Counted from the first letter of the stretch, positions 4,442-32,834 are shown. The stretch: DNA of 53,615 nt from Thermoplasmata archaeon (GCA_035625085.1 DASPQG010000041.1:1-53615); one strand, 5' to 3'. The notes: a model not told the origin generated them from the sequence alone. A program made the numbers and translations.

Positions 4442-7400
4442 TTGAGGTCGTCGTCCGCGCCGTCTCTGATGCTCCGAACTACTGCTCTCGCCTACCGGAC
4501 CCCGACCCTCCCCGACTCCACTGCGTCGGCCCGCCCGACCCCGGGTGGGTTCCGAGGACACGGGACGCGCACGCGCTGGGCGGTGGTGCTCGCGGTCTCG
4601 ATCGTGGTGCTGCTGCTCGCCGAGGGCTTCCAGGATGTCGCGACGCTGCCGCGGCCCACATCCCCAACGAGCCCGGCCTCCTCAGCGGCTCAGCCTGCGG
4701 CGAGCCCAACGAGCGCGCCGACACCGACCGCGGCCGCGAGCCCGGTGCCCGCCCCATCCTCGCCCGGATACGCGTCGCTCTGTTTCCTCAACGTTCTCCC
4801 TCAATGCGCGGCACGCGCCGGTGAGCCCGTCGCGAATCCAGTACCTCTCAACTCGGACCCGCCGCCGTCCTGGACGAACATCACCCCTCCGAAGGGCCAG
4901 CCGAACCCGAACGGCCGATTCCTCCCTTCGATGGCGTACGACCCCGCGACGCACAATGTCCTACTGTTCGGAGGCTACGGGGAGCTCGGCCTCGGACCGT
5001 GGGTGTTCTTCCAGGACACCTGGGCGTTCTCCGCGGGCCACTGGAAGGAACTGATTGCAAACACGAGCTGCACGCCCACCACGTGCCCTTCGCCGCGGGC
5101 CGGGGCGATGCTCGCGTACGACGCCGCCGAGAACGGGGTGATCCTGTACGGCGGCTACGTTTACACGCCGTCGATCGAGGTCGTCTCCTTCAGCGACACC
5201 TGGCTTTTCTCCGGCGGGCATTGGACGAACCTCACGGCCTCGGCCGGAACTCCGCCCTCGCCCCGCTCTGTCGGCAGCATGGTCTGGGACTCGTACGACA
5301 ACTACGTCCTCCTCTTTGGCGGGGAGCTCTCCGGGTTCGTCTCCGCCAAGGACACCTGGAAGTTCGACGGCACGTGGACGAACATCTCGGGGACGGTCGG
5401 GACGGCGCCCGGGGCCCGCGACGGAGCGGCAATCGCCGACTCTCCCTCCGGGTACATCCTGCTGTTCGGGGGCGAGCATGGCGGTGTCCTCTACTCGGAC
5501 GTCGGGGGCTGCGGCGACTCGGCCGTGGCGTGGTGGTTCTTCGCCGGCAAGTGGATCGAGATGCAGATCACCCCGCCGTGCATCAACTCCCCCGAAGGGC
5601 CGGTCGGGGACGCCTCGATTGTCGGGAGCTTCCCACCCTGCGGTCGGATCGAGGCCGGCCTCGGATGGAGCCCGCCGAACAACCGGTTCGTGCTGTTCGG
5701 TGGCCAAGGGTACCCGGTCGAGACTCCGTCGGCCTGCACGGGGTTCCAGTACACCTTCCTCAACGACTCGTGGACCTACCAGAATCCCCCGGGCAGCGGC
5801 TACTTCTGGAAGAACGCGACCGACCCCGGGTTCGTCGGCGACCCTCCGGCTCGGTACGAGATGGGGTACGCCGCGGACTTTACGGACAAGTACTTCGCGA
5901 TCTTCGGCGGCTACCCTGGGCTCGGCTCGCTCAACGACACTTGGCGGTTCAACGAGGTCGTCCACGCCCAGCTCACGGGCCCGTCGTCGATCGACACGAA
6001 CTCGAGCCACTTCACCTTCAAGGTCCCGTTCACCGTCACCGGCTACGGCGGGAGCGGATTCCTCAACTACCGATTCTCGATCACCGGCCTCAAGACCGGT
6101 AACGCCCTCACTGGCTCCGGCTGCGCGCCGCTCACCAACAAGGTCGGGAACTACTCACTCCCATACGACGGGGTCGAGAACGTCGCCTGCACGCCGAGCT
6201 CGGCGAGCTACAACGTCTATCGGTTGACGGTCACCGTCTTCGACCTCCACAACAATAGTCCGGGCGCCCGAGCGACCGCCAACTGGACGTTCAGCGTGCT
6301 CCCGCCCGAGACGGCGTCGATCTACTCCGAGTTCAAGGGGTACTTCTACACCGGCATCAACCTCGACGACAACTTCAGCGCCCTCCTCAAGGTCGCGAAC
6401 CGCGGGCCGGCCACGGTCTCGGCGACCCTCGGCGGTGCCCCGCTCACCTTCACGCCGCGTACCGGTGCGGGCTCGGTCTGGTGGGACGCGGGCCCCGTCA
6501 ACATGGGCAACCTCGCCCCCGGGGCGACACTCGATCTCACGGCCTCGTTCAAGAACTGGACCCTGAACGCGACGTACTCCGTCCAGATCATCAATACCCC
6601 GTTCTGGCTGCTCGCCTTGGTCGAGCTGCCCGGGACGAGCCATATCGTCACCCCGCACGGCTCGGGTCGGTTCAACAAGACCTGGTCGATCACCGACGTC
6701 TACGACTGGAACATTGGACAGGCGTTCGGGTTCAACCTCCCGATCCCGCTCGCGGGCGGCAACTACTCGCTGATCCCCGGGTTCACGATCACCTCGGGGA
6801 TCGACTCGGGCGGCAACGTGAGCCTCACCGGGTCGTTCAAGTTCAACAGCTCGAAGATCGACCTCGGTCCGGCGAGCATCGAGATCACGGCGAAGATCAG
6901 CCTCACCGGCACGTTCGCGCTCGTGACGGAAGGCCCGGACGTCAGCGGGATCAACTGGGTCAGCGCGACGGCGAAGGTCTCGGTCACGGGAGACTTCTCC
7001 GCGAGCGTACCAATCTACGGATTCAACATTCTCGGGATCGACATCGGGTTCACACTCGACATCGAGCTCGATCCGTCGATCGCCCTCTCGCTCATCCTCG
7101 TTCCGACGACCGACACCTCTTCGGAGATCATCCCCGGACTCCAAGTCGCGCTCTCGGCACTCCTCGGCAGCTTCGAGCTTCCGCTCTCCGTCTCGGTCTC
7201 GTTCGGCATCGGCATCGCCTCGGTGGCGATCGGCGGCACGCTCTCGGTCGCGCTCACCTTCACGCTCCTGCCGAGCCTCGGGATCTCCGCCGGCTGGGTG
7301 AACGGCTCGCTCTTCGTGTCGGCCTCGGCGCTGTTCTGGTCCGACCAGTGGACGCTCCTCGGTCCGGCGGTGATCTATAGCTGGGGCGCCGCGGCGCCCC

Positions 7401-8794
7401 TAGTTCCGGCCCGGATGGCGGGCCGGGAGCCGGCATACAACAACGGCACCGGCACCACCTGGAAGCTCGACTCGCGCTACTACTCCGTCAACGGCTACGA
7501 CCAGAACGTCTGGAACCCGGCGGCGACCGGTGGGCCGGCGGTCTCGGACATCTACCCGTACACCACCGTCTCCGCGGCCCCGGGGTACGACGGTGGCTAC
7601 CTCTACTACACCGACGACAACCCGGGTGTCCCGGTCAACCAGGGCCTCGGAGTCTCCGCCCTCAAGCTGAACGCTTCGACGAACGCCCTCGCCTCCGTCG
7701 CCCCTCCCAGCGATCCCGGCTACCTCCTCGAGGGTCCGCAGGCTGCGACGCTCGCGAGCGGGAGCCAGTTCGTGGCGTGGGCGGCCCTTCCGGTGGCCGA
7801 GGAGACGATGGCGAACCCGACCGACCTCTCGTCGCTCGGTCTCCACGGGGCCATCTACTCTCCGGCCAACCGCTCCTGGGGTCCGGTACGCGCGTTCGCG
7901 AACTGGGGGATTGCGGAGTCGTACCGCGTCGATCCCCTCGGTGGCGGCGGCGTGCTGCTCGCGCTGATCTCCCCGACGTTCCTCGTCGGGACCTCGACCC
8001 CTGAGCGGCTCGTCGCCTTCAACCTCACGACCGGCGCCGAGCTCTCGAACGTCAGCGTCACGGGCGTCTCCTCGCTGCTCTCGCTCCGCGCGAACCTTGG
8101 GGATGCGGTGGCGCGCAGCGTCTCGGGAAACGACTCGGTCATCGAGTACGCCGCCGGCGCGCTCGTGCCCGTCTCGGTGACCGTCCCGACGAACACCTCG
8201 GTGCTCACGGAGAGCTTCGTCGCGGGCTCGAGTTCGACCCTGCTGATCCTGTACCGGGAGCCAACGGCGACCGAGCTCGTGCTCTACGACCTTGCGACGA
8301 ACTCCGTGATCGTGTCGAAGCCGCTCGATCAGAGCATGGTCGCGGGGACGGGCTTCTTCGGGACGGGAACGTACTACCTCTTCGCCCGATCCAACTCGGC
8401 GATCTTCGGTTGGACCGAGGTCGGCGGGACGTTCCAGAACCTTTCGACGTTCGCGGTTGCCCACATCGAGAGCTTCGGTGTCGTGCAGACCGGTCCCGCG
8501 CTCCTTGTCTACGCCCTCTCCACGAACGGCAACACGACGGCACCCCTCGTCACCCTCTCCCTCGAAGAGGTCGGCGCGGCCCTACCGGAGACCCCCGGAC
8601 GTCCCGCCCCGCCGCCCTCTCAGACCCCGCCCCCCTCGACCGTCGTGAAGACCGTCACCACCCCGAACACCACGCTCTACCTCGAGTACCTCGCGATCGC
8701 GGGCGTTGCGGTCGTGGTGCTACTCGCGGTCATCGCGATCGCGACCCGGAAGCGGTCCAAGGCACCGCCGAGCCCTCCGGAGGGCCACCCCTAG
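4442..8794 (+). CDS. giant Kelch-repeat beta-propeller surface protein, N-terminal signal anchor and C-terminal TM anchor
   Basis: 1450-aa ORF. Repeated blades follow hhhFGG...DTW.F..G.WTN[IL][ST]. Also has Pro/Thr-rich linkers, many sequons and C-terminal LAIAGVAVVVLLAVIAIATRKRSK. TTG 4442 lies 27 nt after a TTCTAACTA box. ATG 4469 is an alternative start. Confidence 0.75.
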   Translation: MRSSSAPSLMLRTTALAYRTPTLPDSTASARPTPGGFRGHGTRTRWAVVLAVSIVVLLLAEGFQDVATLPRPTSPTSPASSAAQPAASPTSAPTPTAAASPVPAPSSPGYASLCFLNVLPQCAARAGEPVANPVPLNSDPPPSWTNITPPKGQPNPNGRFLPSMAYDPATHNVLLFGGYGELGLGPWVFFQDTWAFSAGHWKELIANTSCTPTTCPSPRAGAMLAYDAAENGVILYGGYVYTPSIEVVSFSDTWLFSGGHWTNLTASAGTPPSPRSVGSMVWDSYDNYVLLFGGELSGFVSAKDTWKFDGTWTNISGTVGTAPGARDGAAIADSPSGYILLFGGEHGGVLYSDVGGCGDSAVAWWFFAGKWIEMQITPPCINSPEGPVGDASIVGSFPPCGRIEAGLGWSPPNNRFVLFGGQGYPVETPSACTGFQYTFLNDSWTYQNPPGSGYFWKNATDPGFVGDPPARYEMGYAADFTDKYFAIFGGYPGLGSLNDTWRFNEVVHAQLTGPSSIDTNSSHFTFKVPFTVTGYGGSGFLNYRFSITGLKTGNALTGSGCAPLTNKVGNYSLPYDGVENVACTPSSASYNVYRLTVTVFDLHNNSPGARATANWTFSVLPPETASIYSEFKGYFYTGINLDDNFSALLKVANRGPATVSATLGGAPLTFTPRTGAGSVWWDAGPVNMGNLAPGATLDLTASFKNWTLNATYSVQIINTPFWLLALVELPGTSHIVTPHGSGRFNKTWSITDVYDWNIGQAFGFNLPIPLAGGNYSLIPGFTITSGIDSGGNVSLTGSFKFNSSKIDLGPASIEITAKISLTGTFALVTEGPDVSGINWVSATAKVSVTGDFSASVPIYGFNILGIDIGFTLDIELDPSIALSLILVPTTDTSSEIIPGLQVALSALLGSFELPLSVSVSFGIGIASVAIGGTLSVALTFTLLPSLGISAGWVNGSLFVSASALFWSDQWTLLGPAVIYSWGAAAPLVPARMAGREPAYNNGTGTTWKLDSRYYSVNGYDQNVWNPAATGGPAVSDIYPYTTVSAAPGYDGGYLYYTDDNPGVPVNQGLGVSALKLNASTNALASVAPPSDPGYLLEGPQAATLASGSQFVAWAALPVAEETMANPTDLSSLGLHGAIYSPANRSWGPVRAFANWGIAESYRVDPLGGGGVLLALISPTFLVGTSTPERLVAFNLTTGAELSNVSVTGVSSLLSLRANLGDAVARSVSGNDSVIEYAAGALVPVSVTVPTNTSVLTESFVAGSSSTLLILYREPTATELVLYDLATNSVIVSKPLDQSMVAGTGFFGTGTYYLFARSNSAIFGWTEVGGTFQNLSTFAVAHIESFGVVQTGPALLVYALSTNGNTTAPLVTLSLEEVGAALPETPGRPAPPPSQTPPPSTVVKTVTTPNTTLYLEYLAIAGVAVVVLLAVIAIATRKRSKAPPSPPEGHP

Positions 8795-13335: not shown

Positions 13336-13402
13336 TGCCGGCGTTACGGGGTTCCCGGCGGATTCCTAGTTGCCCCGACGTGCCGGGCCAGGAAGGAACC
13401 CT

Positions 13403-15004
13403 ATGGAATCCGCCACTCACGAGCATCCCGCCGCCCCGAGTTCGAGCAAGCTCTCGCGCCAAGCGCGTTCCCCGGGCTTCTGGTCCGGGGATTTCCAACC
13501 GACCCGGTCGTTCTTCCTGCTCTATCTCGCGGTCGGCCTTCTGATGGCCGAGGCGCTGATCGGACTGGTTCTGGTAACGGGAGGGGCCTCCTTGCTTCGG
13601 TCCGGCTCTTCGAGTGGTCCCCCCTCCACCTCCGTCCCGAACGGTCCGGATGTGACGTTCGAGCTCAAGGCGTTCATGACCGGCTACGTCGGCGTGAACG
13701 GCTCGATCAATGGGGTGCGGGACCCCACGCTCGTCACCAGCTGGGGGTCTCACGTTACGATCGTGCTGATCGACGGAGAGAACGCGCAGCACGATCTCCA
13801 CGTCGACGGGTACAATGTCCAGACGAACTGGGTGACGGGCGCAGAGCAACAGACGTCGATCAGCTTCCAGGCGACCCTCGAGGGGTCGTTCGATTACTAC
13901 TGTACCTTCCCGGGTCACCGGGAAGGCGGGATGCAGGGGGTATTCACGGTCGGGACGGCGACCAACCCGATCGGGCCCGAGGCGAATCTCACCACCCCGT
14001 TTATCGCGCACAGTCCCACCGCCATCCCGCCCCTGATCACGCGCAACTACTCCACGACCGTGAACCTCTACCTGCACGCGGTCGAGGAAACGGCCGAGAT
14101 TGAGAAGGGCGTCTCCTACACTTACTGGACCTACAACGGGACCGTGCCCGGACCGTTCTTCCGGGTCCGGGTGAACGACACCGTCGTGGTGCACCTGTAC
14201 AACGACCCGACGAGCATGATGAACCACTCCGTCGACTTCCACGCGGTGACGGGGCCCGGGGGTGGAGCCGCGAAGAGCCAGACGCCACCCGGTCACTGGT
14301 CGAACTTCACGTTCCTTGCGATGGTGCCCGGCCTCTTCGTGTATCACTGCGGTACGCCGAACATCCCGACCCACATCGCGAACGGCATGTTCGGGATGAT
14401 CCTGGTGCAGCCCGCCCAGGGGATGCCCCCCGTCGACCATGAGTTCTATCTGATGGAGAGCGAACTCTACCTCACCTGGCCGATCCACACCCTCGGCAAC
14501 CAGGAGTTCAACGGCACGGCGCTCCTCAACAGCGACCCGACGTACGTTGTATTCGGTGGGCGCTACGACGCCTATACGGGGGCGCACCAGCTGAATGTGT
14601 CGGTGAACGACACGGTCCGGATCTTCTTCGGGGAGGCCGGCCCGAACGACTTCTCGGCGTTCCACATGATCGGGTCGATGTTCGACCAGACCTGGCTCTA
14701 CGGGGATCTCACCGACCCACCGCTTGAGAACCTCCAGACCGTGCCGGTCCCGCCGGGCAGCACGGCGATGATGGAGTTCCAAGCGATGTACCCTGGTAAC
14801 TACCCGCTCGTCGACCACCAGATCGCGAACGCCATCGACAAGGGCGCCTTCGCGATCCTCAACGTAACGGGCTGGGCCAACACCACCATCTTCCACGCCG
14901 GTGTCTCCACGATCAGCCCCCTATCCGCCTCCGCCTTCTTCGAGGGAGATGTGCACGGGGCTTTGGCGGTCGCTCCCACCGTGGCGGCGCGACCCATCGA
15001 GTAA
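13403..15004 (+). CDS. nirK: copper-containing nitrite reductase, three-domain form with N-terminal TM anchor and extra cupredoxin domain
   Basis: NirK ligand motifs are present: HSVDFHAVTGPGGG (T1 His, catalytic Asp, T2 His), YHCGTPNIPTHIANGM (T2 His, then T1 Cys/His/Met), FHMIGSMFD and VDHQIANAIDKGA. The N-terminal domain carries the type-1 copper motif YYCTFPGHREGGM. TTG 13370 is an alternative start. Confidence 0.8.
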   Translation: MESATHEHPAAPSSSKLSRQARSPGFWSGDFQPTRSFFLLYLAVGLLMAEALIGLVLVTGGASLLRSGSSSGPPSTSVPNGPDVTFELKAFMTGYVGVNGSINGVRDPTLVTSWGSHVTIVLIDGENAQHDLHVDGYNVQTNWVTGAEQQTSISFQATLEGSFDYYCTFPGHREGGMQGVFTVGTATNPIGPEANLTTPFIAHSPTAIPPLITRNYSTTVNLYLHAVEETAEIEKGVSYTYWTYNGTVPGPFFRVRVNDTVVVHLYNDPTSMMNHSVDFHAVTGPGGGAAKSQTPPGHWSNFTFLAMVPGLFVYHCGTPNIPTHIANGMFGMILVQPAQGMPPVDHEFYLMESELYLTWPIHTLGNQEFNGTALLNSDPTYVVFGGRYDAYTGAHQLNVSVNDTVRIFFGEAGPNDFSAFHMIGSMFDQTWLYGDLTDPPLENLQTVPVPPGSTAMMEFQAMYPGNYPLVDHQIANAIDKGAFAILNVTGWANTTIFHAGVSTISPLSASAFFEGDVHGALAVAPTVAARPIE

Positions 15005-20365: not shown

Positions 20366-22822
20366 TTAGGTCGCGCCCGCCGGAGGCTGCGCGGGAGGCG
20401 GCAGCGGCGGTGGGGATTCCGAGCTCGAAGGCTCCGGGGCGGGGGTCTCGGGCGAGGGCGCTGCGGGGGTGGGTCCCTTCCACTCGGTCGGTGGCGACGT
20501 GGTCGCCCCGCTCGGCGCGGAGGACGGCTTCATGCGGCGGCCGCGTCCGCGGATCACGAAGAACAGGACGACCGCAATCACCACGATGAGGATGAGCAGG
20601 ATCAGCCAGCCGACCGTGAGTCCGCTGCCCGCCCCGAGCTCGAGGTTCAGGACGGACGGGTTCGGGTTCACGTTGAGCGAGGTGACCGCGGCGCAGCCGT
20701 TGCCCCCGAGGCAGGGGCCATTCCCGAGATTGCTTGTGACGTAGAGCTCGAGGAAGAGGGCCCCCTGCGGCGCGTTCGACGGAATCGTGAACGAGATCGA
20801 GCCGCTCGTGCCGACGTCCTGGATGTGCTGGACGTACGGGTATCCATCCGCGAACAGCTCGAACGAGACCCGCTGGGGTAGGGCCGCGCCCCCGACGGAG
20901 ACCACCTGATAGTTCAGCGTCACCGTCTGCCCGGGCTGGAAGCTGCCGTCCGAGTAGCTCGAGGTCGTGCCGACGCTGAGCAGGACGGAGTACCCCTGCT
21001 CCAGGATCATCTCGGTCGATTGGCTCGCGACCACCTGGTCCCCGACCATGGCCCACGCGTCGACGTAAATCTCGAGCGGCGCCACCGATCCGATCGAGAC
21101 CGGGATGTTGCTGTTGTTGGCGACCGTTCCGTTCAGGATCTGCGCGCTTGAGTACTGCCAGTAGGCCCAGACCTGGAACTGGATCGTGGCGCCCGCCGCC
21201 CCGCCGACGAGCACGGCCGTCACGGGGTCCGAGGAGCTCGGAGTGTAGTAGAAGTTCGACGGCGTGAGCAGGAGGGCCGGCGCCAGCACGTCCGCTTGCT
21301 GGACTCCCCAGAAGATGGTCGTGGCGTTCACGACCCCGACCTGCACGGAAATCCGATGCGAGACCATCGACTCGAGGATCGGGAACGTGAAGCTCCCGCT
21401 CGCTCCGGTGGAGTTCAGGGTCCCCTGCTCGTATCGGATGCCAGTGCCCACCCCGACGATCTGCCACCGTACCGCCGTCAGCGGGCCGGTCTGAGCGAAG
21501 TTCGTCGAGTTGACCGCCCACGTGGCGGTGCCGGTATCCCCGACGTAATAGGTGCTGTGATCGAGCGAGAGCTGGACGATCCCCGTACCCATCGCGGGCG
21601 GGTACAGCTCGAAGCTATCGTTGGACCAGGCGGTCCAGTGATAGAACTTGCTCGCCCCGGTGACGTTGACGGTGAAGTTGAGCGCATTGAGGCCGACCCC
21701 GGTGAAGTAGTTGATGAACGGCGGGATGTTCGCGAGGAAGGTGAACCCCGCCTCGCCCGTTGCGTTCGTCGTCAGGGCGGTGGGGGCCCCCACCGGCGAA
21801 ACGTGGTGGGTGCCGTTCCAGTACTGCACCATCACTGCGAGGCCGGGGATGGGAGTGAAGGCGCCGCCGTAGTTCGAGCCCGCCTGAATGCAGGCCGCGA
21901 TGTCCGTGCCGGCGGTGAAGTACAGGTCGTTCACGAGCGTGCAGGTGGGCGGCAGACCCGTGATTCCGACCCCTTCGATGTAGACCGCACCCACCCGGAC
22001 GGTGATGTTCGAGCTCTCGTTCTCGGCGATCCCGCCGCTCACGTTAGTGATGGCGGAGACCTCGATGTGGATCAGCGTGTTCGGGCCTGCGTTCGAGGGC
22101 ACGGTGCCGCTCCACTGACCGAAGCCGGCGCCGGGCGTGGAGAGGGCGATCCCTTTGGCCGGCGTGAGGCTCTGGGTGGTCCCGTTGCCCGTGTAGCTAC
22201 CGTAGAGGATCACGTTCGTGGCATGCGTGTACGGTGCGTTGTTGACGTCGAGGTTCGTCTGCCAGAAGACGCTGAACGGCTGCCCCGGGAGGGTCGAGCC
22301 GCTACCGACCGACGTGAAGAGGGAGGTGGAGTAGATGAGAAGAGTCAGATTCTCGTCCACGGTCCCGCCCGCGGTCGCCGAGAAGTTCACCTTCCAGTGT
22401 CCTCCGTACACCACGGACGGGAACTTGTACGAGGAACCCGACGGGCCGGACGGGTACGACGTGAAGCTGTGGGTGGTGGCGTTCAGCGTGGCCACGTAAT
22501 GGAACGCGGGCGAAGAGACGCCGTCACGAGTGGCGTTCGGGTCCGTGATCGTGACGTTGACCGCGCGGTCGAGAGGGTCCGTGACCGCGAAGTAGAATGT
22601 GCCCCAGCCGGGATACCCGGGATAGAAGTACGTCGTGTCGTACCCCAGGCCGTTTATGACGGTGGGCACGATCGCGGCGGCCGGTTGACTGGACACGTGC
22701 AGTCCGGGGCTCGCCGCCGTACGGGCGGGTGGGGCGGAATGAGCCAGCGCGGGGGCGAAGGCGATCAGCGTCGAGGCGATCAGCAGTACGACCAGGCCTA
22801 CGGCAAGGCTGCGGTGCGACAT
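20366..22822 (-). CDS. S-layer-like surface glycoprotein (signal peptide, large beta-rich ectodomain, C-terminal TM, Pro-rich cytoplasmic tail)
   Basis: Signal peptide MSHRSLAVGLVVLLIASTLIAFAPALA. At least 18 N-x-S/T sequons by eye. TM segment LTVGWLILLILIVVIAVVLFFVIRGRGRR. ATG 22822 lies 29 nt after the first T of CTTATAGAA (22852-22844). Confidence 0.65.
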   Translation of the reverse strand: MSHRSLAVGLVVLLIASTLIAFAPALAHSAPPARTAASPGLHVSSQPAAAIVPTVINGLGYDTTYFYPGYPGWGTFYFAVTDPLDRAVNVTITDPNATRDGVSSPAFHYVATLNATTHSFTSYPSGPSGSSYKFPSVVYGGHWKVNFSATAGGTVDENLTLLIYSTSLFTSVGSGSTLPGQPFSVFWQTNLDVNNAPYTHATNVILYGSYTGNGTTQSLTPAKGIALSTPGAGFGQWSGTVPSNAGPNTLIHIEVSAITNVSGGIAENESSNITVRVGAVYIEGVGITGLPPTCTLVNDLYFTAGTDIAACIQAGSNYGGAFTPIPGLAVMVQYWNGTHHVSPVGAPTALTTNATGEAGFTFLANIPPFINYFTGVGLNALNFTVNVTGASKFYHWTAWSNDSFELYPPAMGTGIVQLSLDHSTYYVGDTGTATWAVNSTNFAQTGPLTAVRWQIVGVGTGIRYEQGTLNSTGASGSFTFPILESMVSHRISVQVGVVNATTIFWGVQQADVLAPALLLTPSNFYYTPSSSDPVTAVLVGGAAGATIQFQVWAYWQYSSAQILNGTVANNSNIPVSIGSVAPLEIYVDAWAMVGDQVVASQSTEMILEQGYSVLLSVGTTSSYSDGSFQPGQTVTLNYQVVSVGGAALPQRVSFELFADGYPYVQHIQDVGTSGSISFTIPSNAPQGALFLELYVTSNLGNGPCLGGNGCAAVTSLNVNPNPSVLNLELGAGSGLTVGWLILLILIVVIAVVLFFVIRGRGRRMKPSSAPSGATTSPPTEWKGPTPAAPSPETPAPEPSSSESPPPLPPPAQPPAGAT

Positions 22823-22843
22823 TGCGAATATTGGGGTAGGACG

Positions 22844-22852
22844 TTCTATAAG
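22844..22852 (-). promoter_or_regulatory. TATA box CTTATAGAA for the S-layer-like gene
   Basis: First T lies 29 nt upstream of ATG 22822. Confidence 0.5.
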
Positions 22853-22876
22853 AACCCCTGTGCCGAGTGCAGCTCT

Positions 22877-22915
22877 GCCGTCCCGTGGGCTTAGCACCAG
22901 CGGGCGGCGATTTTT
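22877..22915 (+). terminator. orphan terminator-like hairpin plus T5 in the divergent intergenic region
   Basis: GCCGTCC(C)G...CGGGCGGC stem (one G-U pair, one bulge) followed by GATTTTTG. No upstream plus-strand gene. Confidence 0.3.
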
Positions 22916-23694: not shown

Positions 23695-24372
23695 ATGTCC
23701 TACGCCACGGCGATCGCCGCCTCGCTCATTGCCCTCAGCGTGGCCGCCCTCCTGCTCGCGGTCCTGGTGGTGATGCGCTATCGTTCGGAGCGACGGCCCT
23801 GCCACCTGTACTGGGGCCTCGGCCTGTTCCTCTTCTTCGTGACCCTTGTCGAGGAAGCCGTGCTCGATCTCGGGGTCTGGTCCCAGGCCCTGATCCAGAG
23901 CTACCTCATCCTGGTCGCGGTGCTCGTCGGGATCCTCTCGATGGGCTCTGCCGAGCTCTCGCTCGCGCGACGGTGGCGGCTTCCCTACTACGGGTACCTT
24001 GGGGTCATCAGCGTGGCGCTGCTCGTCGTGGGGCTCCTCGTCCCGATCCCGCACAGCATCATCTCCGATGGGGTCGTCTCGGGGGTGCCTCCCCTCTCGA
24101 TCACGGTCCTCTCGACCCTCCTCACGGTGCCGGCGGCGCTGCTCCTCATCCTGAGCTCCCTCTACGGGGCGTTCCGACAGCGACGCTACCACCTCCTCTA
24201 CATCGCGTTCGGCACCGCGGTGATCTCCGCAGCGGGAGCCCTGTACCTGGTCTCGTTCCCCGTCAGCCTGTACTACGCGGAGTTCGCCGGGATCGTCCTC
24301 CTGTTCCTCGGGTTCGTCAAGATCCCCCGCCTCGGCGGGACCGGGACGCAACAGCCTCGCCCGGCGGCGTAG
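23695..24372 (+). CDS. polytopic membrane protein (about 7 TM), unknown function
   Basis: 225-aa hydrophobic ORF with no recognisable motif. Confidence 0.45.
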   Translation: MSYATAIAASLIALSVAALLLAVLVVMRYRSERRPCHLYWGLGLFLFFVTLVEEAVLDLGVWSQALIQSYLILVAVLVGILSMGSAELSLARRWRLPYYGYLGVISVALLVVGLLVPIPHSIISDGVVSGVPPLSITVLSTLLTVPAALLLILSSLYGAFRQRRYHLLYIAFGTAVISAAGALYLVSFPVSLYYAEFAGIVLLFLGFVKIPRLGGTGTQQPRPAA

Positions 24373-24453: not shown

Positions 24454-25455
24454 TCAGGGGTTGTGGACGGCCGGGCCGGTCGGAACGCCGGGGGACGGGG
24501 GCATGGGAAGCCGCGCTGCCCGCCAGACCGTGAGCATGTAGAGCACCATCAGGAGTCCCACCACGAAGGCTCCGATCAAGGTCAGGAGGTAGAACGCCCC
24601 GACCATCGGTCCGCTGGTGGTCACCGCGTCGACCGAGAGGCCGCCGTTCAGCTTGAACGCCGTCGGATAGACGAGGTAGCTCTGGGCGAAGACGATGATC
24701 GCTCCGAGGAACGCGAAGACGAACTTCTGGGAGGCGATCGGGGCCGTCGCCTTGACGTTGTAGAGGAGCGCCGCCGCGATCGTGAGTACGCCCGGGATGA
24801 GGAAGTAGCCCGTCAGGAGGCTGCTCGAGTAGAGGTACAGGGCGGCCGCCTCGATCACGACCCCGAGCGTGGTGAACGGAACGGTGATCCGTCGGAGCGC
24901 CTCGATGTTGTAGAACACCGGCGCAAGGCCGATGGCGATGAACAGCACCCCGACGATGTACGGGAGGCTACCCGCGTTCGTCACCCAGCCCCAGAGGGAG
25001 AACTTCGGGCTGGTCAGGCTCAGCGTGACCCCCGCCCCACTCACGATCGCGGACAGGATGATCAGCACCACGAGGCCGATGCCGAGGGTCGCCACGCCGT
25101 ACAGCTTGTAGAGGCGGCGCTCGTTGAGCCAGCCCCGACGCATGATCAGCTCGGCGAACGAGATCGACGAGTTGCGGAGCACGATCAGGATCAGGAAGAC
25201 GAGAATCGGGGCGGCGAGCATTGTGGCCACGGGCCAGAGCATCACGGGGTAGGCGAAGTCGGCCGTCACGACCCAGAACGCGGCAAACGTACCCGTCACC
25301 TCCCAGATCGGGACGATGTACGGGAGCACCTTCGATTTCGTCGCGTCGTAGGCGATGAGCAGGAGCACCCCACCCATCAGCTCCGTCACGAAGAGGATCA
25401 GGAAGATCGCGAAGATCGCGAAATTGATCTCGAAGAGCCAGTTAATAGTTGACAT
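24454..25455 (-). CDS. cydB: cytochrome bd-type quinol oxidase subunit II
   Basis: 333-aa polytopic protein immediately downstream of subunit I, with a 14-nt overlap. Confidence 0.7.
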   Translation of the reverse strand: MSTINWLFEINFAIFAIFLILFVTELMGGVLLLIAYDATKSKVLPYIVPIWEVTGTFAAFWVVTADFAYPVMLWPVATMLAAPILVFLILIVLRNSSISFAELIMRRGWLNERRLYKLYGVATLGIGLVVLIILSAIVSGAGVTLSLTSPKFSLWGWVTNAGSLPYIVGVLFIAIGLAPVFYNIEALRRITVPFTTLGVVIEAAALYLYSSSLLTGYFLIPGVLTIAAALLYNVKATAPIASQKFVFAFLGAIIVFAQSYLVYPTAFKLNGGLSVDAVTTSGPMVGAFYLLTLIGAFVVGLLMVLYMLTVWRAARLPMPPSPGVPTGPAVHNP

Positions 25456-26815
25456 CGTGACCTCCCGCGGCGGGGCCCTCGAGGTCTACTGCGATCGGCT
25501 TACCCCGGAAGACGCGGTCCATGAACCAGAGCGTGAACGGCACGAGCGCGGCGTAGAACAGGATGATCACGATCCCGGGCGCGACGATGTCCGAGCTCGG
25601 ATTCGCGGCGTTCGCCACGGTGAGGACGTTGTAGACGATCCACGGCTGACGGCCGATCTCGTCGGTCGCCCATCCGAGCTCCATCACAATCGCCGTCAGC
25701 GCAGAGAACCCGAGGAACGCGTACGCCAGAATCGGGTGATCGAACGGCTTCCGCTGCATCACCCAGAGCGCGGCGTACGCGAACACGAAGAGGCCGAGCA
25801 GCACGGCCCCGATGATCATCACGTCGAACGTCTCGTGGATGATGAGCGGTGGCCACTCGGACTGCGGGTACTGGGAGAGCCCGGGCAGGTTCGCACCGTG
25901 CTCGAGCCAGCCCTGAAGCCCGGGGATCTGGACGGCGCCGACGACGGACGTGCCGGAAACGGTCCCGAAGATGGTGATCGGGAGGTTCGTCCCGGGCTGG
26001 GGATTCAGCTCGATCGCGGCATACTTGAGCGGCTGGTACTTGTAGAGGTCGTCGATCTCGAGCACCCCCGCGAGGATCGAGAGGACGACGAGCACGAAGC
26101 TCACGACGACCGCGATCCGGAGTCCCCGGAGGAAGAGGGTCTTCTCTTCAGGGGTCGCGCTGCGGATGTACCGGTAGGCGAAGAATCCACCGAGGATCAT
26201 GATCCCGGTGAGCGGGACCGACGTGATCACGTGGAACACCTCGTAGCCGGTCGAGACCGTGAGGAACGGGGCCCAGGGATTCACTCCCGACACGGTGTAG
26301 CTCGAACCGCTCGCCACGTAGGCGCCCATGTCGAAGCCGTTCGGCGTGTTCATCCAGGCGTTCACCATGACGATCAGGACCGCCGAGAGCATCGTCCCGA
26401 TCACGATGGGAAGTGTGAGGACCCAGCGGGTGTACTTCCCCTTGAACGTGCTTCCGTAGTAGACGTATACGACGAGGAAGATCGTCTCGATGAAGAACGC
26501 GAAGATCTCCACGTAGAAGATCGCGATCACCCCGGTCTCGGAGACCAAGGTCATGAACCGCGGGAACAGGTTCACGAGCTCGACGGCCATCACGATCCCG
26601 CTCGCGGTGCCGATCCCGAACGAGACCACGAACGGGCGGATGAGGCGCCGGACAAGGGCGCCGTAGTACTTGTCCTTCGTCCGGGCGAACAGGAACTCGA
26701 AGATGCAGATCAGGATCGCCATCCCGATGCTGAGCGAGACCAGCAGGATGTGGGAGCCTATGGTGAACGCGAACAGGAATCGGTCGAAATCCACTATCGA
26801 GACCGTGGTCAGCAC
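25442..26815 (-). CDS. cydA: cytochrome bd-type quinol oxidase subunit I
   Basis: 457 aa. N terminus ...FDRFLFAFTIGSHILLVSLSIG... carries the conserved His in TM1, and the overall CydA helix pattern is present. GTG start. GACTTAACGGAA box at 26852-26841. Confidence 0.75.
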   Translation of the reverse strand: MLTTVSIVDFDRFLFAFTIGSHILLVSLSIGMAILICIFEFLFARTKDKYYGALVRRLIRPFVVSFGIGTASGIVMAVELVNLFPRFMTLVSETGVIAIFYVEIFAFFIETIFLVVYVYYGSTFKGKYTRWVLTLPIVIGTMLSAVLIVMVNAWMNTPNGFDMGAYVASGSSYTVSGVNPWAPFLTVSTGYEVFHVITSVPLTGIMILGGFFAYRYIRSATPEEKTLFLRGLRIAVVVSFVLVVLSILAGVLEIDDLYKYQPLKYAAIELNPQPGTNLPITIFGTVSGTSVVGAVQIPGLQGWLEHGANLPGLSQYPQSEWPPLIIHETFDVMIIGAVLLGLFVFAYAALWVMQRKPFDHPILAYAFLGFSALTAIVMELGWATDEIGRQPWIVYNVLTVANAANPSSDIVAPGIVIILFYAALVPFTLWFMDRVFRGKPIAVDLEGPAAGGHDVNY

Positions 26816-27015
26816 CCCTCGGCGTTCCGGCTCCGCTGAATTCCGTTAAGTCTTCGGTCAACCCAAGTTCACTCCTCGGAAAACCGCAGATCGGGTGCTG
26901 CATGGACTCCCTATCCGCGCCGGCGAACCGGGAGCCGTACGGGGCCTGGGAAGGGCGGGACACTCCCCGGTCGGGGTCGAGTCGTATAACGGCCGCCTAC
27001 AGATGGCCGAGGATA

Positions 27016-27048
27016 CGTTTAAATACGCATTGATGCGCATTTTATTCC
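27016..27048 (+). promoter_or_regulatory. AT-rich control region: two TATA-like boxes (CGTTTAAATAC, CATTTTATTCC) flanking the CGCAT-TG-ATGCG inverted repeat and CGCAT direct repeat
   Basis: One of the most AT-rich stretches I saw in the window. Sits between divergent cydAB and the four-Cys protein operon. Confidence 0.5.
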
Positions 27049-27064
27049 TGCCCAAGGTGAGCCG

Positions 27065-27685
27065 ATGGCACCGATGAAACGAAAGTATCGAACGATCTAC
27101 CTTGTGACGGCGGCGCTGATGGTCGCCATGATCGGTGGCTACGCGCTGGCTGCGACCTCGCTGACTCCGGGCCCCAACCAAGGAACGAACGTGATCACCT
27201 CCCCGACATCGGGGTTCGGCCTCGTTTCGATCTCCTCGGAGCAACTGGTCATTCTGACCACGCCGATGTCGACTGCCACCGTTGCGGGTAACCAGACCGG
27301 TACGGTCGCGCTCTACGGAACCACCTGGCGGCTCGCCATCTGCGCCGCGGCCCCCTGTGTGCCGCAGAACTTCCGACCGGTGAGTCCCGCCACGCCGGTC
27401 GTCGGTGACTACGCCGAGCAGTTCGTCCTCTCCGTCACGCAGCCGACCCCCGCGAGCGGCCAGGCCGCTGGATTCGACTTCTCGATCACCATTGTCTACG
27501 AACTGAACGGCGTGCCCCCGACCAGCACCGCAGTGTTCCAGGGCTACCTCGCGACGGGGGCCAGCGCTGCCGCCCCGACGATCCCGGTGTTCCTGTTCAT
27601 GGACCTCGGGACGACCACGCCGTTGACCATCACCACGATCTCGACAATCATCAACCAGTGCTCGAGCACCACCAACTGCCCTTAG
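27065..27685 (+). CDS. secreted protein, paralog A of an uncharacterised four-Cys family (ends ...INQCSSTTNCP)
   Basis: Signal peptide ...AALMVAMIGGYALA/ATS. Homologous to the next gene in blocks GDYAEQFVLSVTQP..GFDFSITIV and FMDLGTTTP...NQCSSTTNCP. AAGGTGA SD lies 4 nt upstream. Confidence 0.6.
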   Translation: MAPMKRKYRTIYLVTAALMVAMIGGYALAATSLTPGPNQGTNVITSPTSGFGLVSISSEQLVILTTPMSTATVAGNQTGTVALYGTTWRLAICAAAPCVPQNFRPVSPATPVVGDYAEQFVLSVTQPTPASGQAAGFDFSITIVYELNGVPPTSTAVFQGYLATGASAAAPTIPVFLFMDLGTTTPLTITTISTIINQCSSTTNCP

Positions 27686-27747
27686 CTAAGGAGCAATCAC
27701 TGCGTCATTCGGATCGCGAAAACCAGTCTCGGAACCATTTCCCCGGT

Positions 27748-27776
27748 TTCACGGGGCGGAACCACCGCCCCGTGAA
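27748..27776 (+). terminator. perfect 12-bp stem / 5-nt loop hairpin (TTCACGGGGCGG-AACCA-CCGCCCCGTGAA) between paralog A and paralog B
   Basis: Read directly from the sequence. No downstream T run, so it may be an attenuator or stability element rather than a full terminator. Confidence 0.35.
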
Positions 27777-27843
27777 GACCTTCCGGATCGACCCGGGGTA
27801 GGCACGCCGCCTCGGTCGAACGGACGCGAAAGGAAACTCGCCC

Positions 27844-28434
27844 ATGCGGAGGCCCTGCGGGCTGCGGCATTGGTTCGGCCTGGCACTGCTCTGCCTGCTC
27901 TTCCTGCTCCCTTCGACGGCTTGCGCCGCCACTACGATTCACGTGTTCCCGGCCGAACCCTACTACCTCGTGCGGCTCACTCCTCTGCCCGCCCCGCCCG
28001 TGACGATCGGGGCTCATGCCCTGGTGCACTTCGGTGCCGCTCCCGGGTACCCCGCGGGCGGTGTCCAGGGACTGTCCGTGGGGCTCCAGGGGACGACGGT
28101 TGTCCTGCCCGGCTGCATCCGGGCGTGCACGGACCGATACCGCCCCGCCTCGTCGGTCGCGATCGCGGCCGGTCACTACGCGGAGCGAGTGATCTTCACG
28201 GTCACCCAGCCGGGCCACGCGGGTCCGGCGGTCGGATTTGATCTCGAAATCGCCGTCCATCTGACGACGGGGTGGGTGTTCGGAAAGGGGTACTTCTCGA
28301 CCGGTGTCGCGACGTTTCCCGCTGCGTCGACCGTCACACTCCGGATGTACGTCGACCTGGGCACCGCAGCGCCGACGGTGAGCGCCGTAGAGGTGGTGGT
28401 CAACCGGTGCCTCTCGACGACGGGGTGCCCATGA
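27844..28434 (+). CDS. secreted protein, paralog B of the same four-Cys family (ends ...VNRCLSTTGCP)
   Basis: Signal peptide ...LLCLLFLLPSTACA/ATT. Shared blocks GHYAERVIFTVTQP..GFDLEIAV and YVDLGTAAP...NRCLSTTGCP. Confidence 0.6.
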   Translation: MRRPCGLRHWFGLALLCLLFLLPSTACAATTIHVFPAEPYYLVRLTPLPAPPVTIGAHALVHFGAAPGYPAGGVQGLSVGLQGTTVVLPGCIRACTDRYRPASSVAIAAGHYAERVIFTVTQPGHAGPAVGFDLEIAVHLTTGWVFGKGYFSTGVATFPAASTVTLRMYVDLGTAAPTVSAVEVVVNRCLSTTGCP

Positions 28435-28465
28435 ACTTGGGCGGTCCGCCGCTCTCGGAGGTCTC

Positions 28466-29047
28466 TTGACCGCCAGCACCCGTATGGTAACGGCATCCGA
28501 GATGGCGGACCATTGGCGACGTGCTTCGAACCCGCCGGTCGATGAGACTCAGGGGTCCGCCCCCGGCACCGAGACCGAGACCTGGGCCGAGCGGGTCTAC
28601 GGTGCGCTTCCCCTTTTCATCGTGGGTGGGATATGCCTGGTCGTTGCGATCGATCTCTACTACTCGGGCGTCACCACCCAGCTGAACGGCAACACGGTCC
28701 GACTCTCTCCGTGGGTCCTATTCCTTGCGCTCGCGGTGACCGGTATCGCCGCGGGCGTGTTCTCCCTGTTCCTAGAAGAAGCGGCCCTGGCCCCGGCCGA
28801 AGCGGAGGTCGCCGCGAAACCCACCGCGACCCCGGCCCCCGTCTGGGACGAATCGACCGTCGCGCCCACGAAGCCCGCGTACGTCCGTCCCCGAACCTGG
28901 GAGCGGTATCCCGAGTTCCCCGAAGGCGTGGGGTGGTCACCCGCGGAGCCGAGGGTCGAGCGGGTACCGCCGGACGTCGTGCTGATTCAGATCGACGAGA
29001 TCGCCGCTTCGCTCCGGAAGAAGACGCCCCCGCCCAGCTCGCCCTGA
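28466..29047 (+). CDS. two-TM membrane protein with Pro/Ala-rich C-terminal tail
   Basis: 193 aa. TTG start lies 3 nt after a GGAGGT SD (28457-28462). TM segments LPLFIVGGICLVVAIDLYY and WVLFLALAVTGIAAGVFSLFL. Confidence 0.5.
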   Translation: MTASTRMVTASEMADHWRRASNPPVDETQGSAPGTETETWAERVYGALPLFIVGGICLVVAIDLYYSGVTTQLNGNTVRLSPWVLFLALAVTGIAAGVFSLFLEEAALAPAEAEVAAKPTATPAPVWDESTVAPTKPAYVRPRTWERYPEFPEGVGWSPAEPRVERVPPDVVLIQIDEIAASLRKKTPPPSSP

Positions 29048-31243: not shown

Positions 31244-32353
31244 ATGGGGGCGACCCTCGTCCCGGAATCGCCGGCCGGTGACCTCCGCCTGCGCCCGGTC
31301 GAGATCCTGAAGATGGGGGCGATCTACGGCGCGCTCGCCCTCGCGACCGTCCTTGCGTTCGCCGGCGCCTTCGCCTACCTCCCCCACCACTTCTCGGGAG
31401 AGATCACCGGCGGAGCGCTCCTCTTCACCGGACTCGCGATCACCGCCTACATCCTCGGGATCCGTCACGGGTTCGACGCCGACCACATCGCGGCGATCGA
31501 CAACACCACTCGGAAGCTCCTCAACGACGGAAAGCGCCCCCTCACGGTCGGCACATGGTTCTCGCTGGGTCACTCGACGATCGTCTGCGGCATGATCGTC
31601 GCCCTCGTGATCGCGACCGAGTTCATCACGCGCCAGTACAACGCCTTCGCTTCGGTCGGCGCGGTGCTCGGGACGCTGATCTCGGGGGTCTTCCTGTTCC
31701 TGATCGGCATCGTGAACGTGATCATCGTACTCGAGGTCTATCGGATGTTCCGGGGGGTCCGGGACGGGAAGCTCGACCAGAAGGCGCTCGACGAGCAGAT
31801 GCTGAAGCGCGGCTTCCTCAATCGGATCTTCGGTCGGTTCTTCAGGATCGTCCAGGAGCCCTGGCAGATCTACCCGATCGGTGTGCTGTTCGGCCTCGGG
31901 TTCGACACCGCGACCGAGGTGCTGATCATCGGCCTCACGGTCGTGGTGGCGACGGCCGGAGCGATCCCGATCTGGGCCGTTCTGTTCCTGCCGCTCCTCT
32001 TCACCTGCGGCATGGTGCTCTCCGACACCACCGACGGGTTCGCGATGCGCTACGCGTACGGCTGGGCGTTCAATCACCCGATCCGGAAGATCTTCTACAA
32101 CCTCACGCTCACGGTGATCTCGGTGCTCGTCGCCTTCGCCATCGGCGGTGTCGAGCTCCTCCAGGTCATCTCGACGGAGTTCGGTTGGGGCGGACCGTTC
32201 TGGAGCTGGCTCGACAACCTCAACTTCGAGGCGCTCGGGATCGGTATCGTCATCCTGTTCGTCGGGAGCTGGTGCATCGCGATGGCGATCTACCACGTCA
32301 AGGGATACGAGAAGGTCGGCTGGGGGCCGTCCGAACCTCCGGTGCGCGCCTGA
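31244..32353 (+). CDS. NiCoT-family nickel/cobalt permease (HoxN/NixA type)
   Basis: Signature RHGFDADHIAAIDNTTRKL in TM2. ATG lies 29 nt after the first T of GGTTAAATC (31213-31221). Confidence 0.8.
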   Translation: MGATLVPESPAGDLRLRPVEILKMGAIYGALALATVLAFAGAFAYLPHHFSGEITGGALLFTGLAITAYILGIRHGFDADHIAAIDNTTRKLLNDGKRPLTVGTWFSLGHSTIVCGMIVALVIATEFITRQYNAFASVGAVLGTLISGVFLFLIGIVNVIIVLEVYRMFRGVRDGKLDQKALDEQMLKRGFLNRIFGRFFRIVQEPWQIYPIGVLFGLGFDTATEVLIIGLTVVVATAGAIPIWAVLFLPLLFTCGMVLSDTTDGFAMRYAYGWAFNHPIRKIFYNLTLTVISVLVAFAIGGVELLQVISTEFGWGGPFWSWLDNLNFEALGIGIVILFVGSWCIAMAIYHVKGYEKVGWGPSEPPVRA

Positions 32354-32375
32354 CCGGTGAGGGGCCGGAGCGTCG

Positions 32376-32834
32376 ATGCCGCACAAGGTCGTCCGGACGG
32401 GAGTGTCCCTCGAACCCGAGCTGCTCGAGTTGCTCGACGGCTGGGTCGCGGAGCGGAACAGCGGGAGCCGTTCGGAGGCGATCCGGGCGCTGATCCGTAA
32501 GGAGCTCGCGCACCGGGAGCTCACCGACCCCGATTCGGACGCCCTGGGCGTGGTCGCGCTACTCTATCGGCACGACACCCCGAACGTGCTGCGTCGTCTC
32601 ACCGCCGCCGAGCATCGCTGGGGCGAGCACGTCCGCTCGACGACGCACGTGCACCTCGAGGGGGACGCCTGCGCCGAGGTGGTGCTGCTCACCGGCCGCC
32701 GGCGCGAGATCGAGCGCGCGGCGGAGGACCTACGGGGGGTCAAAGGCGTCCGGGACGGGGGCTGGCTCGTCACGGCTCCGGCCGTCGCGGGAGGCCGGAC
32801 CGGTCACCATCACCCGCACGGCGGTCGACGGTGA
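32376..32834 (+). CDS. nikR: nickel-responsive regulator NikR (ribbon-helix-helix plus metal-binding domain)
   Basis: N-terminal RHH VVRTGVSLEPELLELLDGWVAERNSGSRSEAIRALIRKEL. C-terminal HVHLEGDACAEVVLLTG resembles the NikR high-affinity Ni site. Confidence 0.75.
   Translation: MPHKVVRTGVSLEPELLELLDGWVAERNSGSRSEAIRALIRKELAHRELTDPDSDALGVVALLYRHDTPNVLRRLTAAEHRWGEHVRSTTHVHLEGDACAEVVLLTGRRREIERAAEDLRGVKGVRDGGWLVTAPAVAGGRTGHHHPHGGRR

Follow-up and report, generated by a model that had tools for sequence, protein, structure and literature searches.

The stretch of DNA analysed here, 53,615 nucleotides (nt) from a Thermoplasmata archaeon (GCA_035625085.1, DASPQG010000041.1:1-53615; the window in the following), contains on its plus strand three consecutive genes, here called A, B and C, that lie divergently from genes of a cytochrome bd oxidase. 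The trio is probably a surface module of one archaeal order that works outside the cytoplasm, is stabilised by disulfides and does not depend on cytochrome bd. The more specific reading that we favour, and put forward tentatively, is that the trio builds a disulfide-locked surface fibre or coat in which A is the major subunit.

Gene A (27065-27685) encodes a protein of 206 amino acids (aa), the proposed major subunit, and gene B (27844-28434) a paralog of A with 196 aa, the proposed minor subunit; the spacer between them is 158 base pairs (bp) long. Gene C (28466-29047), with a TTG start and an alternative ATG at 28484, encodes a membrane hairpin protein of 193 aa. On the minus strand lie cydA (25442-26815; Pfam match to PF01654, 1.4e-91) and, downstream of it, a cydB-like gene (24454-25455), both divergent from A, with an intergenic region of 249 bp between cydA and A (26816-27064). 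The cydB-like product has the right size and position and reached just 10.9 bits (E = 0.29) against the Pfam family Cyt_bd_oxida_II, a weak score that fits a divergent archaeal subunit II of the qOR3 type (PMC9287336).

Recurrence of the gene trio

Related loci were collected by scanning one genome per GTDB species, which gave 27 loci, and these were pooled with the contigs of the loci L001-L007. Ten proteins of the window were mapped to all the loci by tblastn, and C, where tblastn missed it, by direct reading of open reading frames (ORFs). The scanned loci were all from Thermoplasmata metagenome-assembled genomes (MAGs), UBA184 and UBA61 among them. Acidic peat or soil sites from which contigs came include SPRUCE, MFD and JGI Ga0326727. 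Wherever a locus extended far enough downstream, as 24 distinct ones did, the genes A, B and C followed one another in unchanged order and orientation. The trio is a conserved unit, and it is specific to one order, UBA184/Lutacidiplasmatales, which consists of uncultured acid-soil archaea within Thermoplasmata. A preliminary description of the window had proposed to search archaeal genomes for proteins ending in C-x-S-T-T-x-C-P and to look for their co-occurrence with cydAB or with the partner C, which has two transmembrane (TM) helices; C accompanied A and B throughout these 24 loci, and cydBA was a neighbour of the trio at just 5 of 25.

The five consist of the window and four related locus groups (L003-5, L008, L010 (UBA184) and L031), and in all of them cydBA occurs together with a gene for an unannotated membrane protein of 225 aa. 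At the other 20 loci cydBA is absent. The loci L001, L009, L011, L014 and L032 retain the synteny DUF1697 ... A-B-C-PHO4-Pirin and lack the cydBA block, and the remoter loci have quite different neighbours, such as eIF5A, an acetyltransferase and diphthamide synthase. According to Sheridan et al. 2022, cydAB is found within Lutacidiplasmatales (the TMEG group, which includes GTDB UBA184) only in TMEG-bg1 and UBA184; these two are close relatives, and their cydAB was probably acquired horizontally from Thermoplasmatales (PMC9287336). Because cydBA is confined to so few loci, because the synteny is kept without it, and because of this report, the adjacency to the bd oxidase is seen to be a lineage-specific insertion beside an older, order-wide locus.

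A functional or regulatory tie of the trio to cytochrome bd is not supported. The co-regulation with the bd oxidase that had been suggested earlier is contradicted by the distribution of cydBA, by the lateral origin of cydAB (PMC9287336) and by a promoter palindrome that belongs to A only. Also a role of the trio as an accessory component of cytochrome bd was rejected, on the same distribution and on the divergent transcription. The functional inference that the adjacency makes tempting is thereby corrected.

The 225-aa protein itself (23695-24372, plus strand) has several TM helices and no match in Pfam or NCBIfam, and its gene has been gained and lost with cydB and cydA as a block. It could be an accessory protein of the qOR3-type bd oxidase or take part in its assembly.

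A pair lacking B was found in locus L030 (8001-9520 of contig DATEQS010000007.1, which is shared with L009). It consists of an A-like gene, whose product has 37% identity to A and ends C-x5-C-P, and of a C-like two-TM gene directly 3' of it. The pair is flanked by genes for a 564-aa surface protein and for a homolog of an 843-aa protein of the window.

Regulatory DNA around gene A

An archaeal TATA box, TTTAAATA, is located at 27018-27025 on the plus strand, 40-47 nt 5' of the ATG of A, and nearly every related locus has one of the forms TTTAAATA, CTAAATA or TATATATA equally far from the gene. The TATA box is followed, ahead of the point where transcription is expected to start, by a palindromic element, ATACGCATTGATGCGCAT (27023-27040, plus strand), with the consensus ATACGYAT-NN-ATRCRYAT, which in L015 forms a perfect 18-bp palindrome. 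The element occurs once in the 53.6 kb of the window, against zero sites expected by chance. Among the 34 fetched loci, 19 carry the palindrome with its exact consensus; each of these has a single copy, placed about 40 nt 5' of A, and some of them are loci without cydAB. For these reasons the palindrome is assigned to the promoter of A: together with the TATA box it forms A's own promoter and operator, and not a control region shared with cyd. The preliminary description had the 249 bp right, but the conserved DNA within them is the promoter of A, found also at loci without cydAB. Thus an operator common to cyd and A was rejected.

The palindrome is probably the operator of a dimeric regulator. 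A further motif, GTCGTATAAC (26981-26990, plus strand), lies about 35 nt 5' of the TATA box and holds the CGTAT half-site of the palindrome; of 26 related loci about 12, again including some without cydAB, have similarly placed motifs resembling CGTATAAC or GTATATC. Possibly the regulator that binds the palindrome uses this motif as an additional site. The 5' untranslated region of A has in most loci a short GC hairpin and a GGAG or GGTG Shine-Dalgarno sequence.

The spacer between A and B contains, 3' of the stop codon of A, a perfect GC-rich hairpin of 12 bp, TTCACGGGGCGG-AACCA-CCGCCCCGTGAA (27748-27776, plus strand), and the minimum free energy of the spacer has a z-score of -3.4. A comparably stable hairpin (≤ -22 kcal/mol in 36 nt) was detected within 130 nt of the A stop in 20 of 27 loci, as against 3.7% of random 130-nt segments of the same sequences. 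In two sub-alignments of it, 7 of 13 pairs and 5 of 10 pairs, respectively, had changed in a compensatory manner. No AT-rich promoter-like element for B was seen in the A-B spacer. The hairpin is proposed to be an mRNA 3'-end, stability or attenuation element that sets A above B and C. As far as can be read from this arrangement, A is probably the abundant product and B and C are expressed by read-through. In operons of major and minor subunits the major gene usually comes first and the lesser genes are reached by read-through.

In the loci L021, L022, L028 and L029, which represent one subclade, the hairpin following A takes the form GGGGGACGGC-loop-GCCGTCCCCC, some 23-55 nt past the A stop, and is followed by 5-7 A on the coding strand, not T. 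Since there is a run of A and no run of T, it is not a bacterial-type intrinsic terminator in either orientation.

Protein families and their cysteines

A and B are clear paralogs (BLASTP E = 8e-20, 39% identity over 135 aa), and their alignment spans the shared blocks quoted in the preliminary description, which had rightly taken both for exported, homologous four-cysteine proteins. When 5.8 billion proteins were searched, 119 homologs of A were found, nearly all of about 190-215 aa. None of them has a functional annotation, one JGI entry carrying a stray 'ATP synthase assembly protein I' label, and the named sources are all 'Thermoplasmata archaeon' MAGs. B had 82 homologs, of which the full-length ones are nearly all 195-197 aa long and 56-77% identical to B of the window, and C just 33, all from Thermoplasmata.

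The residues C93, C199 and C205 and the terminal proline of A are invariant in all 119 homologs, and C98 is kept in at least 90% of them; in the B family all four cysteines are invariant. The cysteines are spaced C93-x4-C98 and C199-x5-C205-P206-stop in A, and C91-x3-C95 and C189-x5-C195-P196-stop in B. The ending C-x5-C-P-stop is present in 118 of the 119 A homologs, and 117 have exactly four cysteines. The C-terminal endings of A and B, earlier called identical, are nearly so in pattern but differ in sequence (NQCSSTTNCP and NRCLSTTGCP). The preliminary description would have been contradicted by a known-family match, an unconserved C-terminal motif or a trio that does not recur; what was found is a motif kept almost throughout the A family, a trio kept in every sufficiently covered locus, and no family match.

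When a profile built jointly from A and B was run exhaustively against 1.84 billion cluster representatives, 48 clusters only came up at E ≤ 0.001, all belonging to the same small family except for one spurious repeat protein. The farthest members retain the N-terminal (R/K)R-x-(V/I)-Y ... G-G-(Y/W/F)-A-x-A and usually also the C-terminal C-x5-C-P. Neither Pfam nor NCBIfam contained anything for A or B even at E ≤ 1, nor was there a match to them in PADLOC or PHROGs; C gave only sub-threshold chance matches in these collections. Searching Pfam at E ≤ 10 with 51 family members produced no match and no recurrent weak signal, and PDB sequence-profile searches with the A alignment and the A+B alignment gave nothing significant. 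The families of A, B and C are new: nothing detectable ties them to described families or solved folds, and the earlier failure to place the proteins holds after all these searches and after the structural comparison given below.

In L034 (2990-4222) there are tandem A-like genes encoding proteins of 193 and 180 aa. These retain the leader and a P-x-Q-like extension, have another four-cysteine cluster and are without the C-terminal C-x5-C-P.

The trio, with a pair of secreted and disulfide-rich paralogs of about 20 kDa encoded before a small two-TM protein and without homology to anything known, could also be a two-protein antimicrobial with its immunity membrane protein, comparable to SulA/SulB, the paired sulfolobicins of Sulfolobus. 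This explanation is very improbable. Toxin-immunity loci are typically patchy and fast-evolving, whereas the present locus is stable, syntenic, single-copy and apparently vertical across the order, with identity falling gradually from 72% to 46%. It is flanked by housekeeping genes (PHO4, Pirin, DUF1697, eIF5A) and its promoter is conserved order-wide. Furthermore, no relatives were present in the viral contigs scanned, and there is no PADLOC or PHROGs match.

Export signals and predicted folds

By inspection, the leader of A (residues 1-29) consists of the n-region KRKYR, the h-region IYLVTAALMVAMI and the predicted signal-peptidase site GGYALA↓ATT, and that of B begins with MRR.., continues with the h-region WFGLALLCLLFLL and ends at PSTACA↓ATT. 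In both, n-, h- and c-regions follow one another, GG or P breaks the helix near -6, and the residues at -3 and -1 are small, as in a Sec substrate cleaved by signal peptidase I. The cleavage motif is retained in the farthest members of the family, even below 30% identity, and because of this persistence cleavage of A and B by signal peptidase I is likely.

Mean pairwise identity in A is 79% for residues 5-29, 65% for the extension that follows and 57% for the core, while in B it is 45% for the leader and 70% for the core. The leader of B is thus of the ordinary, fast-evolving Sec type, and the N-terminal region of A is the most conserved part of that protein. The leaders had been described as Sec-type, which holds for both on inspection, but only that of B is ordinary, the N-terminal region of A being atypically conserved. 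The N-terminus is kept also where the globular part has diverged (P0243, P0246 and L034). A constraint at the RNA level was ruled out as the reason for this conservation: the loci have synonymous differences, so the constraint on the leader of A acts on the protein.

Several other export routes and identities were rejected. Type IV pilins and archaellins were rejected since there is no class III signal peptide: KRKYR is directly followed by T-I-Y without a junction of G or A with a hydrophobic residue, and the cleavage motif comes after the helix, whereas class III leaders are short and basic, have G or A at -1 and are cut before the helix. Neither A nor B nor the 51 members had an archaellin or pilin match in Pfam. 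Tat export, which calls for (S/T)-R-R-x-F-L-K ahead of the h-region, was rejected, most A homologs having K-Y-R-T or R-Q-R-T and B no consistent motif; RR-T-V-Y occurs only in some distant members. B is not a lipoprotein, for the cysteine at -2 in B of the window is not conserved and other B homologs have ASA.

The AlphaFold2 monomer models, built with the family alignments, were confident for both A (mean pLDDT 86.4, pTM 0.74) and B (mean pLDDT 88.4, pTM 0.73). They predict a leader helix at residues 4-28 of A and 7-25 of B, followed by a low-confidence stretch at 29-50 and 26-50, respectively, and a core that is in both proteins a β-sandwich of about 7-9 strands, mostly with pLDDT >90. In PDB (entries to April 2026) Foldseek found nothing significant; the best matches had E = 0.013 for A and E = 0.037 for B, both with TM-score <0.3. 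Against the viral models of BFVD the best match of A had E = 0.004 and a low TM-score, and none reached E ≤ 0.001. The matches listed were β-sandwiches of various kinds, namely CBM11, PA14, jelly-roll capsids, RhoGDI and UNC119/PDE6δ.

Mature A and B begin with 20-25 residues that are unstructured in the monomer models (pLDDT < ~55), yet conserved in sequence. In the extension of A (about 22 aa), P37, Q39, N42, T44 and F51 are at least 90% conserved, and N42-x-T44 is an N-glycosylation sequon in most A homologs, but not in A of the window. In that of B, T30, P51 and P52 are invariant and Y40 is kept in at least 90%. The hydrophobic helix of A has a small-xxx-small pattern (A17/A21/G25/A29). 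Mature A contains 17% Thr, 9% Ser and 10% Pro, no Lys, no His and just two Arg, a composition that would fit an acid-exposed surface protein of an acidophile.

Both cysteine pairs of each protein are short-range (C-x3/4-C and C-x5-C) and are expected for that reason to form local disulfides, which would lock the folds of A and B. Of the two roles proposed earlier, disulfide locking is the likelier, and metal binding is possible but less likely in view of the Sec leaders and of the absence of His from A. A cupredoxin of the plastocyanin, azurin or sulfocyanin kind was rejected: A has no His, and no Copper-bind match was found at E ≤ 1 for A and B or at E ≤ 10 for the 51 members. Type-1 copper is bound by two His, one Cys and one Met. 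In Pfam and NCBIfam there was no match to cupredoxins, thioredoxins, DsbD or any other redox family.

These results bear also on an extracytoplasmic thiol-redox or metal-binding module that would serve the cytochrome bd oxidase or be co-regulated with it. Such a module could be read from the four invariant cysteines of each protein together with a conserved cysteine in the first TM helix of C, and from the divergent position beside cydAB in the window, L003-5, L008, L010 and L031. We regard it as improbable, since the trio and its promoter element are fully kept where cydAB, adjacent at so few loci, is lacking, cydAB is a lateral acquisition of one subclade (PMC9287336), and the promoter palindrome is not duplicated toward cydA. 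The cysteine pairs are spaced as for local disulfides, A has neither His nor a redox-family match, and the leaders are of the Sec and not the Tat type, which makes export with a pre-bound cofactor unlikely. The link to bd is largely refuted.

Protein C

The preliminary description of C as a two-TM protein with a Pro/Ala-rich tail was borne out. The two hydrophobic helices, TM1 (about residues 47-66) and TM2 (about 83-103), are joined by an outer loop of about 16 aa, and both termini are cytoplasmic according to the positive-inside rule. TM1 has a conserved P-L...G..C, including the conserved cysteine, and TM2 a conserved L-F-x-A-L-G...G-x-G. After TM2 follows a variable, Pro/Ala-rich, disordered linker or tail. 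At its C-terminal end is an amphipathic helix, VVLIQIDEIAASLRKK (residues 170-186, nt 28973-29023, plus strand), that is conserved among the C homologs with the consensus (V/I)(L/I)x(E/Q)(I/L)(D/E)x(I/L)xxxLR(K/R), followed by basic residues.

The main rival explanation, a possible but somewhat unlikely one, is that the trio forms a membrane-tethered complex and no filament, A retaining its helix as an anchor packed on the two helices of C. B would be a soluble partner bound to the ectodomain of A as a heterodimer, the role being that of a receptor, an adhesion complex or an envelope scaffold, and the cytoplasmic tail and terminal helix of C would couple the complex to a cytoplasmic partner. 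The helix region of A is more conserved than its own core while the leader of B is ordinary, and the small-xxx-small pattern of A and the G-xxx-G-like motif in TM2 of C suit helix packing. A-type proteins and C always occur together, even without B as in L030; the outer loop of C is too short to hold a partner outside the cell, which leaves contact with the A helix as the simplest link, and without a tether, exported proteins that are soluble would be lost from an archaeon that has no wall or only an S-layer. The G-G breaker and the A-x-A at -3 and -1 are, however, found superfamily-wide, B included, and mark a signal peptide that is cleaved, not an anchor. Expression in unequal amounts, as the hairpin after A implies, fits a 1:1:1 complex poorly, and C has no signalling or enzymatic domain in Pfam or NCBIfam.

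Other genes of the window

On the plus strand 3' of PHO4 and Pirin, a NicO nickel/cobalt transporter gene (PF03824, 7e-91) is directly followed by a NikR-type regulator (RHH and NikR_C); the two (31244-32834) make up a compact nickel-homeostasis pair. A protein of 544 aa with multicopper-oxidase and plastocyanin-like domains (13370-15004, plus strand) and a Kelch/β-propeller protein of 1450 aa (4442-8794, plus strand) are both probably extracytoplasmic and unrelated to the trio.

The 843-aa protein (20366-22897, minus strand) is rich in Thr and Asn and has many N-x-S/T sequons and no family match; a signal is present at its N-terminus, and a TM helix at the C-terminal side is combined with a cytoplasmic tail rich in Pro. 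It is a neighbour kept in L003, L008, L010 and L031, and its homolog adjoins the A-like and C-like genes of L030. It is probably a large surface glycoprotein.

Proposed function of the trio

In the fibre or coat reading, A would be transcribed from its own strongly conserved promoter and the hairpin after it would make A abundant, B and C being obtained by read-through. A and B would be exported by Sec, cut after the conserved G-G-aromatic-A-x-A, and would fold as acid-stable, Thr-rich, charge-poor β-sandwiches, each locked by two short-range disulfides (C-x3/4-C and the terminal C-x5-C-P). The N-terminal extension of about 20-25 residues would then dock on a neighbouring subunit in a manner resembling strand donation, so that A polymerises to a fibre or coat, with B as a minor adaptor or terminating subunit. 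C would recognise the unusually conserved N-terminal helix of A in the membrane and provide a platform for assembly or anchoring, and the conserved helix at its C-terminal end would reach a cytoplasmic partner. The cleavage of the signal peptides, the disulfides, the polymerisation, the membrane contact of A with C and the ratio of A to B and C are the parts of this scheme that we infer.

This reading draws on the trio as a unit of constant order, in L030 reduced to the A-like and C-like genes without B, on the conserved export signals and the surface-like composition of mature A, and on the operon layout, with a conserved promoter, a major gene, a hairpin and the minor genes. Also the extensions support it, being unstructured in the models yet conserved as in monomers of the TasA superfamily (bioRxiv 10.64898/2026.01.04.697558), and so does the N-terminus that outlasts the core as in Tafi pilins (PMC11821415). 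There is precedent among archaeal strand-donation filaments in Saci_0406/0405 (PMC9715654) and TafA/TafE/TafB/TafF (PMC11821415), where a major subunit is paired with paralog-like minor subunits and membrane partners.

Several points weigh against it. Pfam, PDB profiles and Foldseek revealed no sequence or structure likeness to TasA/ABP, Tafi (DUF1102) or thread subunits, and neither a dedicated signal peptidase nor an usher-like or adhesin gene turned up in Pfam scans of the cluster and the window. The extension of A is polar and Thr-rich and not clearly an amphipathic donor strand. The conserved helix of A with its small-xxx-small pattern fits a permanently retained anchor too, and the high expression of A is suggested by DNA and RNA features only. 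That A, B and C represent an unrecognised class of archaeal filaments, built of a disulfide-locked β-sandwich of new fold that polymerises through its N-terminal extension and depends for assembly or anchoring on a dedicated two-TM partner reading the signal helix inside the membrane, is a rather doubtful extension of the fibre reading.

We know of nothing described of the cell surface of Lutacidiplasmatales. Being order-wide in the available genomes and probably highly expressed, the trio is a candidate for their main surface structure, with a possible role in adhesion, biofilm formation or envelope integrity. The trio is narrowly distributed, and the function is reached by inference. Lutacidiplasmatales (TMEG) are abundant, uncultured archaea of acidic soil and peat, with on average about 65% of the genome novel, and they are predicted to be without archaella (PMC9287336). 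If the proposal is true, the trio would be the first surface appendage proposed for these uncultured, archaellum-less archaea. If strand donation takes place, the chaperone-free archaeal filaments would gain another structural class and also a new kind of membrane partner, since one that recognises the signal helix in the membrane is undescribed for threads, bundling pili and Tafi.

Comparison with known systems

The trio resembles the small subunits of cytochrome bd only in its position beside cydAB in the window. Subunits of the CydX/CydS/CydH class are single-helix peptides of about 30-60 aa encoded inside the cyd operon, whereas A, B and C are about 200 aa long, divergent from cydAB and kept in genomes without it.

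Tafi, the Tat-fimbriae or Tafi bundling pili of Haloarcula and Natrinema (TafA/TafE, DUF1102-type pilins), are alike in having β-sandwich subunits of about 170-190 aa encoded as adjacent major and minor paralogs, and they have Sec-dependent relatives in Thermococcales, Archaeoglobales and Sulfolobales (PMC11821415, PMC12337348). In them the N-terminal 40 or so residues exceed the remainder in conservation and are common to otherwise unrelated proteins (PMC11821415), a feature found also in A (79% and 65% against 57% in the core). Their cluster includes TafB, a two-TM, mostly cytoplasmic protein comparable to C (PMC11821415), and export by Sec or Tat is followed by cleavage of the signal peptidase I type. 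A and B differ from Tafi in having no DUF1102 profile match (51 members, E ≤ 10) and no Foldseek match to the solved Tafi filament. The trio cluster is without a TafD-type peptidase, TafG (DUF5305), the TafC adhesin and the TafF anchor; neither an S24/S26 peptidase nor DUF5305 was present in the Pfam annotations of L001-L007 or in Pfam scans of 28 ORFs of the window. There is no twin-arginine consensus, most A homologs having YR or QR where Tat signals have RR, and the pilins are not reported to have invariant 2+2 cysteines or a C-terminal C-x5-C-P.

The thread of Sulfolobus acidocaldarius, also from an acidophile, combines the Sec-exported major subunit Saci_0406 with the co-transcribed Saci_0405 of similar fold, which has been proposed as a cap or nucleator (PMC9715654). 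The N-terminal tail of the thread subunit mediates donor-strand complementation, and the surface protein is glycosylated and rich in Thr and Ser (PMC9715654). A and B have no sequence or structural match to it in Foldseek or PDB profiles. Threads are stabilised by isopeptide bonds and not by disulfides, Saci_0405 lacks the Sec signal that B has in normal form (PMC9715654), and no counterpart of C has been described for them. Neither Saci_0406 nor the Tafi subunits were among the Foldseek matches listed.

The TasA superfamily (TasA of B. subtilis, AbpA of Pyrobaculum and CanA/AbpX of Pyrodictium) comprises proteins of 100-350 aa with a signal peptide (PMC9245690; bioRxiv 10.64898/2026.01.04.697558) and a β-sandwich or jelly-roll-like core, as in A and B. 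The N-terminal extension is likewise unstructured in monomer predictions and becomes the donor strand there, and AbpX has a structural disulfide (bioRxiv 10.64898/2026.01.04.697558). A and B differ in having no Peptidase_M73/TasA profile match (51 members, E ≤ 10) and no match to an NCBIfam signal class, and TasA, AbpA and CanA were not in the top 50 Foldseek matches listed per model. The leader motif G-G-aromatic-A-x-A recalls the TasA/SipW-type leader GGGTWAAF, a likeness that does not count as a test of membership.

Membership of A and B in the TasA, Tafi or thread families is thus not supported, and the likeness to them is one of organisation: exported β-sandwich paralogs that form a surface structure with a membrane partner are of a kind already known in archaea.

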